A DNA stretch of 40,690 bases from a virus (lineage: Duplodnaviria; Heunggongvirae; Uroviricota; Caudoviricetes). The notes beneath the pieces were generated by a model, which did no database searches, was not told the DNA's origin, and was given only the letters and a program-made list of their open reading frames with translations. Position numbers and translations under genes: made by a program. Location: IMG/VR virus record IMGVR_UViG_2541047843_000008, one strand, 5' to 3'. This document shows positions 3,367-26,232 of this stretch, piece after piece. Each line of letters starts with the position of its first letter. The first letter of the stretch is position 1.

Positions 3367-3395
3367 TGCCCGCAATATTTTGCGGGCTTTTTTTT
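3367..3395 (+). terminator. Rho-independent terminator, plus-strand orientation only
   Basis: Stem GCCCGCAA / TTGCGGGC followed by 8 T on the plus strand; abuts the tailspike stop. Confidence 0.5.
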
Positions 3396-7013: not shown

Positions 7014-7104
7014 ATTTACATCGCACTCCTCTTGTGCCATAGTAATCGGGCACTGGCAAAATCCAGTGCCGGGATTGGTCTCCCGGATTACTAAGTGGCG
7101 CATA

Positions 7105-7127
7105 CCACGCCAGACGTGGTTTTTTTA
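7105..7127 (+). terminator. Rho-independent terminator after the small antirepressor-like gene
   Basis: Stem CCACG / CGTGG with 5-nt loop followed by 8 T. Confidence 0.5.
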
Positions 7128-7284
7128 TGCGTATAGCACAGTCATGCCAGAATTATGGTGGGCTGAATGGGGGTCCGAAAGGACGCCGGTACCACTTAGG
7201 CCGGTAAGACCAACTCCGTTCAGTTCACCACCATCTGATTGGTCTCAGCGGTGGTGATGTAATTCGCTAAGTGGAGACGCCATC

Positions 7285-9139: not shown

Positions 9140-9161
9140 AAACAAGGCCGCGAAAGCGGCC
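9136..9161 (-). terminator. Rho-independent terminator for the minus-strand membrane gene
   Basis: Stem GGCCGC / GCGGCC with GAAA loop; U-run on the minus-strand side (TTGTTTTT). Confidence 0.5.
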
Positions 9162-9170
9162 TGTGACATG

Positions 9171-19936: not shown

Positions 19937-20544
19937 CAGGACAACCTCGCAATGGTAAACTCGTCAACCGGTGGCTGTGGTTCCTGTGATTCATTCTGGC
20001 TATGCGAGCCAGCACTAAGAATCACGCGATTGTACATATTGAGAGCAAATGTACCGAGATCCGCATTCCCAGTCAGCGCCATGTTAATGGCTGCCGCAAG
20101 ACGCCAGGCCAGCGCCTCCATAAAAATGGCATCAAACATGTTTACATCTGAAACGCGAGAGACATACTTGAGCCATGCCTGAGGCTGGTCTGTGTAGATC
20201 AACTTTCCTGTTCCGTTGGTGTCTGCACCAACTTCGTACTGAACGCGCATTGCTGCTGTTGGATTGCGTACACCAGGAAGCATAATTTCAGTAATGCGCA
20301 GACAATCTGACGGGTACTGGTACGCATATTCCCAGTCAGGCGGTGGATTGCTCGTATCTGCAAGCGCCACGCGTTTGGTAGCAAAGTTCCAGTCAAAATC
20401 AGAAAGCACAGCATCACGGCAGGCCTCAAAGTGCAGCGAACATTCCCCCGCTTCCTTGCTGGCTTCCGTCAGGCTGTTAATGCTGCGGCTGTTGCCAATA
20501 TTGGACAGCGCACGATTACAGATCTCTACTACAGAGGCCATCAC
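19936..20544 (-). CDS. Tail tubular protein A-like (adaptor), T7 gp11 position
   Basis: 202 aa directly before the gp12-like gene with overlapping stop/start. Confidence 0.5.
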   Translation of the reverse strand: MMASVVEICNRALSNIGNSRSINSLTEASKEAGECSLHFEACRDAVLSDFDWNFATKRVALADTSNPPPDWEYAYQYPSDCLRITEIMLPGVRNPTAAMRVQYEVGADTNGTGKLIYTDQPQAWLKYVSRVSDVNMFDAIFMEALAWRLAAAINMALTGNADLGTFALNMYNRVILSAGSHSQNESQEPQPPVDEFTIARLS

Positions 20545-20864
20545 TCACCTCCGTTACCGTACAGAGTTTCAGCCGCTGATTTTTCTACATCCCCGGAAAC
20601 AGGAGCGATCGCCATATCAGTGATCTGCAGATCGGCGCTGCGATTAACACCATCGTCAGTTTCTCTGGCAGACAGGCCTCGAATAACAGCCTTTGCAGTT
20701 ATCATCACTTCTGTTCCGACGCCCTGAGGTTGCGCCTTCAGCTTATTCAATGTGTCGTTATTAAGAGTGATGCACAGCCCCCACGGGTATTCATCGCGAG
20801 TTCTGGTTTCTCCGCTCTCATCCTGGTAGCTGTCAGTGCCGGTTTTGAGGTTTACGAGTTCCAT
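20541..20864 (-). CDS. Hypothetical virion protein
   Basis: ATG with AGGAG SD immediately after a GC-rich hairpin. Confidence 0.4.
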   Translation of the reverse strand: MELVNLKTGTDSYQDESGETRTRDEYPWGLCITLNNDTLNKLKAQPQGVGTEVMITAKAVIRGLSARETDDGVNRSADLQITDMAIAPVSGDVEKSAAETLYGNGGE

Positions 20865-20880
20865 ATACACTCCTGCAATA

Positions 20881-20896
20881 AAGGGGCCGAAGCCCC
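20881..20896 (-). other. Intra-operon stem-loop (AGGGGC / GCCCCT, UUCG loop in the transcript) after head genes
   Basis: Perfect 6-bp GC stem with tetraloop followed by UUAUUG and then SD/ATG of the next gene. Confidence 0.45.
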
Positions 20897-20914
20897 TTGT
20901 CTGATCCGCGAGGC

Positions 20915-21259
20915 TTACACGCCCAGTTCTTTACGCTTATCTGCGATCTTCTCGCGGAGCGTTTCGGCTTTGGCGTTATGGTGTGGCTTCTCGTTAAAGA
21001 GCAATTCGTACTCTTCACGGAGCTTATCCAGTTCACCATCATCTGACACGTCGTTGATGATTTTGGTGCTGGTTGCTGCCATTGACACCTTTCCTGCAAC
21101 TTTTGCTTTTGCCTGTCTGGCTGCATCGTTAACAGGTTCCAGTGCGCTACCAGGCTCACCTTCGTATTCGATTTCTGCCCCCTCCGGCCACAGAGTGTTA
21201 TGGATATGAGAGAGGCGCAGAACGCGGTATCTTGGTTTCTCACCTGACATCGATATCAC
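20915..21259 (-). CDS. Hypothetical head-associated protein
   Basis: ORF in structural operon, coiled-coil C-terminus. Confidence 0.4.
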   Translation of the reverse strand: MISMSGEKPRYRVLRLSHIHNTLWPEGAEIEYEGEPGSALEPVNDAARQAKAKVAGKVSMAATSTKIINDVSDDGELDKLREEYELLFNEKPHHNAKAETLREKIADKRKELGV

Positions 21260-21260
21260 C

Positions 21261-21698
21261 TTAACCAGTTACTTTTGAGCGGATCGGATACGGCGTATTG
21301 GCATCAACATCAAGACTGATACCAGCAGTGAATTCGCCAGCCGTTAGTGGGCCAGTTGCGACGGAGTAGTTAACACGCAGATATCGCTGAACACCGGCAG
21401 GCACCTTTGCAGAAACAACTCGTTTACCTGCTGTCAGGGCGGTCTTTGCCAGTGCGCCACTATCATAAATAGTGGTCCATGAGCTGTTATTCTCACTCGT
21501 CTGCAACTGGATGTTTACAGTTGCATCACCGCTTGCTGCGGCGGCTGTGTTAACCAGCGCCCAAAACTCAAGCGGGTAACCCACGCCGATATCACGACGT
21601 TTTCCGTCAATTGGACCGAGATCGATTACGTCAGTAGAAGCCGCGGTATTCGTAACCGCCTGAGCTTCGGAGAACATCAACAGTTTGTCGGTGATCAT
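21261..21698 (-). CDS. Hypothetical virion structural protein (possible capsid decoration)
   Basis: 145 aa, Thr/Ser/Ala-rich beta-type composition, directly after the capsid gene. Confidence 0.45.
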   Translation of the reverse strand: MITDKLLMFSEAQAVTNTAASTDVIDLGPIDGKRRDIGVGYPLEFWALVNTAAAASGDATVNIQLQTSENNSSWTTIYDSGALAKTALTAGKRVVSAKVPAGVQRYLRVNYSVATGPLTAGEFTAGISLDVDANTPYPIRSKVTG

Positions 21699-21713
21699 CT
21701 TCTTTCTCCATTA

Positions 21714-21733
21714 GTGGGTCTGTTACGACCCAC
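21714..21733 (-). other. Stem-loop (GTGGGTC / GACCCAC) between capsid and next gene
   Basis: 7-bp inverted repeat with 6-nt loop, followed on the minus strand by GGAG and ATG. Confidence 0.4.
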
Positions 21734-21749
21734 AGGTTAATAACAGGCG

Positions 21750-22742
21750 TTACACCACGCGGGCTTCTGTTTCCAGAAGCGCATCAGTTTCACGGATTGG
21801 TACACCACGGAATGAAGTCCACCACTCGCCTTCTGTCTCTTTTACGCTGATAGCCAGAGATGTTTTCTCCAGAGACTGCAGATCAAGAGCCTGGCCTACA
21901 GTGCGGTTCATGTAGAACACCGGGCGGCCCATGCCACGGTTTGGAATGCGATGTAGTGCTTTAACCATCAACTTCGCAATATTTGCGGCAGAGGATGGTT
22001 CTGAAAGATTGCTGACATCGATGTTTGCAATGCGAACAACATAACGCCAGTCACGCAGAGCAAGTCCGTTATCCCATTTGTAATGGGTGCGATAGCCTTC
22101 GTACTTGCCGCCATTAGCATCTTCCAGTGTCACCTGGCCTTTATCTTCCATCTGGATGCCAGCCTTCTGCCCTTTCGGGAAGATGCCATGCACGGTGTTT
22201 TCGCCCCACACCACTAACCAGATTGAGGTGTTATCTGTACCCGTGCCACCAGCATCAATGATGTTCTGAGCATTACCCGCAGACAGGCTGGAATAGCGGG
22301 AGGACAGTCCCATAAACTGCTGAGGGTTAACGCTGGAATCACCATAAAACAGCGTCTGCGCCATCTGCTGATTCATCGCTTCAATAAATGCGCGGTCTTC
22401 AGACAGGCGGAATTCGGCGGTATTGCCGTTCAGATCAGCCAGTGACTTATCGACTTCCGCATAGGTTTCCAGCATGCCAACGGAATCGGTTACCTGCACT
22501 GTGGTTGATTTGCTTGGCTGTACGCCATAGTTCAGCAAACGCCAGGTAGCTGAAGGTAAACCAGAACGAATGGTGGTTCGGTGTCCGGTAGGAAGGTTCC
22601 CTTCGACAAAAGGCATATCCTGAAGGATCGGGTTAGTTTGACCGAGAAGCTCGATAATCTTATCGACTTTCCCGTTTTGATCGACGCGCTTACCCCAGTC
22701 AGCCAGCGTTAGCGCAGTTAAGCCTTTAACAGCCATTGTCAT
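21750..22742 (-). CDS. Major capsid protein
   Basis: 330 aa immediately after the scaffold gene; classic portal-scaffold-capsid order. Confidence 0.7.
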   Translation of the reverse strand: MTMAVKGLTALTLADWGKRVDQNGKVDKIIELLGQTNPILQDMPFVEGNLPTGHRTTIRSGLPSATWRLLNYGVQPSKSTTVQVTDSVGMLETYAEVDKSLADLNGNTAEFRLSEDRAFIEAMNQQMAQTLFYGDSSVNPQQFMGLSSRYSSLSAGNAQNIIDAGGTGTDNTSIWLVVWGENTVHGIFPKGQKAGIQMEDKGQVTLEDANGGKYEGYRTHYKWDNGLALRDWRYVVRIANIDVSNLSEPSSAANIAKLMVKALHRIPNRGMGRPVFYMNRTVGQALDLQSLEKTSLAISVKETEGEWWTSFRGVPIRETDALLETEARVV

Positions 22743-26069: not shown

Positions 26070-26146
26070 GTGGCATTAGCTCAGTCGGACAGAGCAACCG
26101 CCTTCTAAGCGGTTGGTCGCAGGTTCGAATCCTGCATGCCACGCCA
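26070..26146 (+). tRNA. tRNA-Arg (anticodon UCU, reads AGA), phage-encoded
   Basis: Cloverleaf read by hand: acceptor GTGGCAT/ATGCCAC, D-arm GCTC..GAGC, anticodon loop CUUCUAA, T-arm GCAGGTTCGAATCCTGC, discriminator G, CCA end. Confidence 0.9.
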
Positions 26147-26189: not shown

Positions 26190-26232
26190 GGCGGTGATGG
26201 TTTCCCTTGAAGGACTATCACCGCCCTTTTTA
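26190..26232 (+). terminator. Rho-independent terminator after the tRNA
   Basis: 9-bp stem GGCGGTGAT / ATCACCGCC followed by CTTTTTA. Confidence 0.5.

Follow-up and report, generated by a model that had tools for sequence, protein, structure and literature searches.

Two conserved hairpins in the head-gene spacers of a phiV10-type prophage: a candidate leaky terminator and a candidate exonuclease barrier

The structural operon examined here carries a perfect GC-rich hairpin in the spacer after the capsid gene and a second one in a spacer two genes later. This arrangement raises the question of whether the two hairpins are anything but chance palindromes and, if so, what each of them does for the late mRNA. 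The window (the whole stretch of DNA that was analysed, 40,690 nucleotides, IMG/VR record IMGVR_UViG_2541047843_000008) can be assigned to a phiV10-type Escherichia coli prophage of the genus Uetakevirus, epsilon15 group. Over the 2.4 kb surrounding the hairpins, identity to the Escherichia phages phiV10, HEMP4, PAS61 and TL-2011b is 98.8–99.5%. The structural operon lies on the minus strand, and its gene order was derived from the open reading frames, from PHROGs and Pfam, and from the phiV10 annotation. The features to which the text refers are as follows.

25421–23742, minus strand: portal, first in the listed order, followed by a 98-aa gene and then by the protease.
21750..22742, minus strand: major capsid protein, GP7 family (Pfam PF20911, E 3e-149; PHROG 212; phiV10 annotation).
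21699..21749, minus strand: spacer 1, 51 nt, from the capsid stop to the Bbp16-like start; a 16-nt linker, hairpin 1, then UAAU-GGAG-AAAGAAG-AUG.
21714..21733, minus strand: hairpin 1, GUGGGUC-GUAACA-GACCCAC, a perfect 7-bp stem with a 6-nt loop.
21261..21698, minus strand: Bbp16-like gene (BPP-1 cement-protein family), 145 aa, directly downstream of hairpin 1 (Pfam PF21190 Bbp16, E 5e-47).
20915..21250, minus strand: 111-aa gp9-like gene (epsilon15 gp9; PHROG 590; phiV10p12 annotation).
20865..20914, minus strand: spacer 2, 50 nt, from the gp9-like stop to the Gp10-like start; a 16-nt linker, hairpin 2, UAUUGC, the SD AGGAG, and AUG at 20864.
20881..20898, minus strand: hairpin 2, AAGGGGC-UUCG-GCCCCUU, a perfect 7-bp stem with a C(UUCG)G tetraloop and the core GGGGC-UUCG-GCCCC.
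20541..20864, minus strand: Gp10-like capsid decoration gene, 107 aa, directly downstream of hairpin 2 (Pfam PF21628, E 1e-51).
20541–19936, minus strand: adaptor/tail tubular A-like protein, followed by large tail and internal virion proteins.
9145..9162, minus strand: terminator-like hairpin at the operon end, AGGCCGC-UUUC-GCGGCCU followed by UGUUUUUAAC (terminator discriminant +6.7).

The stop codon of the capsid gene is the TAA at 21752–21750; its start may be 22736, as in the phiV10 annotation. The phiV10 counterpart of the 145-aa gene, phiV10p11, carries a note of its resemblance to Bbp16. The 111-aa gp9-like gene, to which no function is assigned, is the last one upstream of hairpin 2. 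The gene after hairpin 2 is not a tail gene; the match to PF21628 makes it a Gp10-like capsid decoration gene.

Hairpin 1 was found on the minus strand exactly as a sequence-only reading of this DNA had described it, GTGGGTC/GACCCAC after the capsid gene at 21714–21733. It folds with a dG of −12.4 kcal/mol (z −4.3), begins 16 nt past the capsid stop and ends 4 nt upstream of the SD GGAG (21709–21706), the next ATG being at 21698. Hairpin 2, placed earlier at 20881–20896, is likewise present, but its coordinates had been 1–2 nt off: AGGGGC-UUCG-GCCCCU occupies 20897..20882, and the full stem 20898..20881. Its dG is −12.1, with five of the seven base pairs G/C and UAUUG after the stem. It begins 16 nt past the stop TAA (20917–20915) and ends 6 nt upstream of the SD AGGAG (20874–20870).

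By energy alone the hairpins are unexceptional, since about 20 hairpins per strand reach a dG of −12 or lower in the 40.7-kb window. When the energy of each whole spacer was compared with shuffles, the result was significant for spacer 1 (z −2.5) and not significant for spacer 2 (z −0.8). The case was therefore made on placement, which is exceptional: between the gp3-like and the gp14-like gene, no gaps but spacers 1 and 2 exceed 14 nt, and every other junction is an overlap or a gap of at most 14 nt. Both share the same layout: stop, 16 nt, hairpin, about 15 nt with the SD, and AUG. Within the coding sequence of this operon, only 1.0% of the 51-nt windows contained a perfect hairpin with a dG of −12 or lower. 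Measured against this control, two hairpins in two spacers are therefore far from chance, the joint probability being roughly 1e-4 if the two are independent. Both long spacers exist to hold a hairpin.

Relatives of the locus came from three sources: GenBank phages, a set with a single genome for each species (53 loci), and IMG/VR, where 80 near-identical loci were kept of roughly 500. Among the matches listed, the 51-nt spacer 1 of the phiV10 type occurred as 78 identical copies and four variants. One variant (L066) has a U-A pair of the stem broken to a C.A mismatch, and in another (L078) the same pair is restored as a compensated C-G. Of the remaining two, L100 disrupts another pair of hairpin 1 and L104 is changed outside the stem.

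When spacer 1 of all the enteric relatives was aligned by MAFFT, stems of unequal length fell out of register, and a covariance-model alignment was used instead. A model made from eight close sequences served to align 17 enteric relatives, all of them distinct; among these were Tyrion, 65FD, a Klebsiella phage, and prophages of Erwinia, Kluyvera, Rahnella, Buttiauxella and Pantoea. In this structure-guided alignment 98.3% of the hairpin 1 cells were paired, six of the seven pairs showed compensatory changes, and 26 double-change cells were counted where shuffling gave 5.4 (none of 500 shuffles reached 26); the alignment being fitted to the structure, these numbers are somewhat inflated, and the lineages are not independent. 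As a control, the partner strand was slid by one to three columns, whereupon pairing fell to 24–53%. The raw spacer-1 sequences agree, in that the flanks (UAAC..CUG..AUUAAC and UGGAGAAAGAA) are constant while the stem changes. The compensatory pair changes across the 17 enteric relatives thus indicate that hairpin 1 is selected as a structure.

The length of spacer 1 in relatives is bimodal, either 10–26 nt without a hairpin (the epsilon15 type) or about 35–85 nt with a GC hairpin. As relatives of the epsilon15 type are entirely without hairpin 1, it must be dispensable in some backgrounds. In farther relatives the spacer-1 sequences are unalignable and the hairpins unrelated in sequence, but the position is kept; Bordetella phage BPP-1, for example, has CGGGGGCGG-GCGA-CCGCCCCCG in the bbp17/bbp16 gap, after its capsid gene bbp17.

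Readthrough or frameshifting at hairpin 1, which would yield a longer capsid protein, was also considered and rejected. In the 0 frame another stop comes 8 codons later, the sequence ahead of the capsid stop contains no X XXY YYZ slippery heptamer, and the distance from stop to hairpin varies in distant relatives.

Both hairpins have the general form of an intrinsic terminator, that is, a GC-rich stem-loop of about 5–12 bp with a short loop, situated after a stop codon. Terminator discriminants were calculated after d'Aubenton-Carafa (1990) but with modern energies from ViennaRNA, and the scores are accordingly rough. Hairpin 1 is without a U-tract; its tail, UAAUGGAGAAAG, gave a T of 1.2 and a discriminant of −35. 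In hairpin 2, the last two U of the stem open the run UUUAUU (20882..20877), so that the U-run (UUUAUUG) is short and interrupted. Framed with its 5-bp core, hairpin 2 had a dG of −9.6, a T of 3.2 and a discriminant of +7.4; framed with the full 7-bp stem, it had a discriminant of −18.5 and failed the 5-of-8 T rule. The 5-bp score is close to that of the operon-end hairpin at 9162..9145, the equivalent place of which carries an annotated terminator in epsilon15, and it is below that of a terminator-like hairpin before terS (+21). A simple terminator scan listed neither hairpin of the head region, hairpin 2 lying just under the T-count rule and hairpin 1 having no T-run. An internal promoter after hairpin 2 was also sought, and the idea was rejected: no sigma-70-like match was found on the minus strand near 20860–21000, and only 16 nt separate hairpin 2 from the AUG.

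The two positions differ in the same way among relatives. Hairpins of the hairpin 1 class are nearly always without a U-tract, and only 3 of about 33 lineages have a positive discriminant. For the other position, the 1.3 kb downstream of the Bbp16-like gene was searched for its best terminator-like hairpin, which in most lineages was located in the gap behind the small gp9-like gene. This hairpin, standing before the Gp10-like or adaptor gene, had a U-tract and a positive discriminant in about 40 of 57 loci, and in 36 loci a terminator-like hairpin lay 3–65 nt upstream of the Gp10 or adaptor homologue. Pseudomonas prophages have a textbook terminator here (GGGCCC-UUCG-GGGCCC-UUUUUCUUUU), and BPP-1 has CGGGGGC-UUCGU-GCCCCCG-CUUUUUCUU before bbp14. 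In enteric relatives the stem of hairpin 2 is almost invariant while its flanks vary; the support for hairpin 2 therefore consists of this conservation together with its replacement by other terminators in distant relatives. With a Gp10-like gene next in line, the U-tract was weaker, at a median T of 3.2 (n = 19), than directly ahead of the adaptor, where the median T was 4.25 (n = 17; Mann–Whitney p 0.0025). This comparison is confounded by phylogeny and only suggestive of a dependence on the next gene.

The epsilon15 RefSeq record annotates the site equivalent to hairpin 2 as a rho-independent terminator (stem_loop 7664–7686 in NC_004775.2, predicted, between gp9 and gp10), which is the same syntenic position. 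The two sites are alike in having a GC hairpin with a 4-nt loop, and in epsilon15 a U-rich tail follows (CGGGGCC-AUUC-GGCCCCG-CUUUUCU). They differ in the sequence and length of the stem (7 bp of G/C in epsilon15 against a core of 5 G/C here) and in the tail. The epsilon15 record also marks its site as bidirectional, and its annotation is a computational one, no experiment having mapped the terminator. Records of phiV10 type mark neither hairpin. Rfam 15, searched at gathering thresholds and at E ≤ 10, gave no match in 20700–21900, the whole-window matches lying elsewhere. A search of the literature for transcript mapping of the late genes of epsilon15, phiV10 or BPP-1 found none.

A conserved U-tract is required for termination but not for nuclease blocking. 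As the U-tract is kept in one class and missing in the other, the two hairpins would be expected to do different things. We put at roughly 0.5 the probability that both are selected late-mRNA structures of two classes, hairpin 2 being a leaky terminator and hairpin 1 an exonuclease barrier. Termination, exonuclease blocking and an effect on protein ratios are all functions that we infer from comparison of sequences. The suggestion that the hairpins are partial terminators thus holds in part: it suits hairpin 2, with its orthologous U-tract terminators and the epsilon15 annotation, and not hairpin 1, which has no U-tract and a discriminant of −35, and whose class almost never has one. Termination at hairpin 2 is probably only partial, given its short U-tract. 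For hairpin 1 the best reading is that of a 3′-exonuclease barrier or mRNA-stability element, another role that had been proposed for both.

On this two-class reading, hairpin 2 (20898..20881) would act as a weak intrinsic terminator for the host RNA polymerase, so that a fraction of the transcripts would end there. This would lower the mRNA dose of all the downstream genes and would leave a head mRNA with a nuclease-resistant 3′ hairpin. Hairpin 1 (21733..21714) would not terminate, but would halt the 3′-to-5′ exonucleases PNPase and RNase II. Once the distal transcript had been cut and degraded, decay would halt at hairpin 1, and the capsid cistron would outlast the rest. The result would be a staircase of mRNA levels, with capsid at or above cement/gp9-like, and these above the Gp10-like and tail genes. 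With 16 nt separating each hairpin from the stop and about 15 nt from the following AUG, both could stay folded while ribosomes terminate upstream of them and initiate downstream.

There are precedents in E. coli for the role proposed for hairpin 1. There, U-less 3′ structures at operon-internal boundaries protect the upstream cistrons, as at malE-malF and at the consecutive hairpins of menBCE (PMC5927463), the latter being a parallel for the occurrence of hairpins 1 and 2 in one operon. Like the protective structures described by Dar and Sorek (2018, PMC5927463), hairpin 1 is stable, U-less, intercistronic and conserved, and stands after the most-needed cistron. Under the definition given in that work (a U-less stem-loop at the 3′ boundary of an abundant cistron, with its structure conserved), hairpin 1 would be classed as a protective 3′ stem-loop. 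It departs from the E. coli cases in that it is by sequence not a REP element, is borne by a phage, and occupies a spacer of its own where they are mostly inside the next coding region.

The closest counterpart of the whole arrangement is that of BPP-1, where bbp17/bbp16 and bbp15/bbp14 show the same layout: the capsid gene is followed by a U-less GC hairpin, and the small gene downstream of the cement gene by a canonical terminator. The proteins flanking these hairpins are homologous to those of the window. The hairpin sequences are unrelated to those here, however, and the stems are longer (9 and 7 G/C pairs). BPP-1 also has a full U-tract, and a tail/adaptor gene comes directly next because there is no Gp10-like gene in that phage. 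Neither intergenic hairpin is annotated in the BPP-1 record. No virion proteins of BPP-1 are more abundant than its capsid and cement proteins, which occur 1:1 (PMC3863775); a hairpin separating the genes for these two therefore cannot be a strong attenuator, which fits the missing U-tract. Given this 1:1 need, a large excess of capsid over cement is not obviously useful. Hairpin 1 could also have an extra role outside the known classes, such as insulating the translation of two equimolar capsid proteins.

In T7, the terminator T-phi lies after the capsid gene and is believed to boost capsid output. The sequence-only reading had drawn on this case, and the analogy is apt for function but not for mechanism. 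T-phi and its LUZ100 counterpart are likewise hairpins right after the capsid gene, reported as terminators and thought to raise capsid over later genes (PMC10134795). They differ from the present hairpins in having U-tracts and in acting on a phage single-subunit RNA polymerase; no RNA polymerase gene of the phage's own was found in the epsilon15 annotation, and here the host polymerase would be at work. The arrangement differs as well, the hairpin after the capsid gene having no U-tract in the window and the terminator-like one coming two genes later. The accompanying idea of a head-over-tail stoichiometry is only partly apt, since hairpin 1 precedes a homologue of the Bbp16-type cement protein and hairpin 2 a Gp10-like decoration gene.

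The most serious competitor to the two-class reading, although an unlikely one, is that both hairpins are purely post-transcriptional stability elements, with hairpin 2 fully read through, for example by an antiterminated polymerase. If late transcription is antiterminated, hairpin 2 would not terminate and would be a nuclease barrier only. The U-tract of hairpin 2, short and interrupted, is weaker than in relatives, and the hairpin directly before terS resembles a terminator, an arrangement also known from Q-type late operons. Just downstream of hairpin 2, moreover, lies the gene for an abundant capsid decoration protein. The Gp10-like decoration protein of epsilon15 is as abundant as the capsid protein, so that strong attenuation at this point fits poorly and would be counterproductive. 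A full U-tract is nevertheless kept at the hairpin 2 position in most relatives, which nuclease blocking would not need. No antiterminator is annotated in epsilon15, and Pfam recognised none in the 113-aa protein upstream of terS; of the proteins considered for this role, the 113-aa and the 93-aa one were both without a Pfam match.

Somewhat less probable still is that hairpin 1 serves the gene downstream of it. RNase E would cut in the AU-rich 16-nt linker CGCCUGUUAUUAACC and leave a 5′ hairpin that shields the Bbp16-like mRNA, as in papBA; or else the hairpin would keep the SD region open and defined. In the enteric group the end of hairpin 1 is indeed a fixed 4–6 nt from the SD, with the linker and the SD flank conserved. 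The papBA case provides a precedent for a 5′-terminal protective hairpin (PMC5927463), and the cement protein is required in high amounts. In distant relatives, however, the hairpin tracks the capsid stop, lying near it or overlapping it, while the number of nucleotides up to the next AUG ranges from 13 to 46, and this ties it to the upstream cistron. An RNase E consensus (RN|WUU) is not obvious in the linker, as judged by eye only.

That the hairpins are protein-binding sites, either for a repressor of translation at the following RBS or for a DNA-binding regulator at an inverted repeat, appears improbable. Both hairpins adjoin an SD, and inverted repeats are typical of operators, yet among relatives the stem and loop sequences are replaced completely with the pairing kept. 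The loops are UUCG, GNRA or arbitrary and vary freely; such freely varying loops of generic stability motifs argue for a structure-only role and against a sequence-specific ligand. By virtue of G.U pairs, the sense strand folds better than the antisense in 24 of 33 spacer-1 lineages (Wilcoxon p 7e-4, the lineages not being independent), and this advantage points to an RNA structure rather than to a site in duplex DNA.

RNase III processing, which had also been put forward for these hairpins, is very improbable. T7 has RNase III sites between its late genes, and the epsilon15 record has predicted RNase III sites elsewhere in the genome. The stems here are of 7 bp, however, against about two helical turns in natural RNase III substrates. 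Minimum-energy folds of the 51- and 71-nt contexts added only a few weak outer pairs to the stems and gave no extended duplex of the order of 20 bp or more, and the epsilon15 annotators called no RNase III site at the position equivalent to hairpin 2. Finally, although the window has many hairpins of comparable energy and the whole-spacer z-score of hairpin 2 is weak, functionless chance palindromes are hardly credible in view of the placement, the covariation and the positional conservation out to BPP-1.

Their placement thus bears out the claim that the hairpins are real and punctuate the head genes of the late operon in a non-random manner, and their conservation in relatives settles the question of non-randomness. 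From these comparisons we regard both as real, conserved and conventional phage operon punctuation, the orthologue of hairpin 2 being already annotated in epsilon15 and hairpin 1 being unannotated but of a known kind. A tentative extension, which we hold to be more doubtful than probable, is that an ancient two-tier punctuation of the head module is present in BPP-1/epsilon15-like podophages. A U-less protective hairpin after the capsid gene would come first, followed at the border of head and tail genes by a true terminator whose U-tract may be adjusted to the copy number of the gene that follows, being stronger before the 12-copy adaptor than before the Gp10-like gene.

The practical value of the finding is mostly annotation. 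In the engineering of phiV10 reporter phages, insertions in spacers 1 and 2 could disturb the balance of head proteins. If their proposed roles are correct, the hairpins also provide a leaky terminator and a nuclease barrier in compact and portable form. The familiar phage theme of making more head than tail protein is repeated here. If true, the proposed roles would explain how a temperate podophage that depends on the host polymerase obtains its capsid, cement, decoration and tail proteins in their ratios from one long operon.

The U-tracts of the hp2-class hairpins (the window's hairpin before the Gp10-like capsid decoration gene, and its counterparts in relatives) were compared according to the gene that follows, Gp10-like or adaptor, with loci L016–L057 set against the window and L001–L015. 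The U-tract was found to be weaker before the abundant Gp10-like gene, with a median score T of 3.2 as against 4.25 before the adaptor gene (p = 0.0025, phylogeny not corrected for).

Immediately upstream of the terS start (ATG 28880/28877), the following elements were found, in this order:
28949–28932, minus strand: terminator-like hairpin GCCGCC-AACUAU-GGCGGC, then UUUAUUUUG; discriminant (a rough terminator score) +21
28919–28906 and 28902–28888, minus strand: two direct repeats, GGTACTATTACCAC and GGTAACTATTACCAC, 3′ of that hairpin
The equivalent place in the epsilon15 record is annotated as a repressor site. The arrangement could bear on the start of late transcription, or on readthrough in it.

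A plus-strand insert, antisense to the late genes, separates the terminase genes from the portal module and carries:
26070–26146, plus strand: tRNA-Arg, anticodon TCT
26190–26225, plus strand: very strong terminator hairpin, a 14-bp stem then CUUUUU, 3′ of the tRNA

A further hairpin directly follows the tailspike stop (3394):
3368–3387: hairpin GCCCGCAA-UAUU-UUGCGGGC, with a U8 run on the plus strand only
Because the U run is confined to that strand, the hairpin looks like the terminator of the convergent plus-strand genes, not of the tailspike gene.

The capsid gene DNA (21750–22742) was 66–71% identical to the capsid genes of BPP-1, BcepC6B, and other non-enteric podophages. It gave no match to the epsilon15 capsid gene, whereas the query sequence does match epsilon15 at its adaptor end. 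The head module (capsid gene, the U-less hairpin hp1, and the Bbp16-like gene) looks mosaic relative to epsilon15. The capsid start annotated in phiV10 corresponds to window position 22736, not 22742.

Two adjoining Rfam matches, both above the gathering score, were located upstream of plus-strand ORFs:
7050–7126, plus strand: isrK Hfq-binding sRNA
7151–7235, plus strand: C4 antisense RNA (P1/P7 immunity type)
In this prophage, the pair may make up an antirepressor control module.
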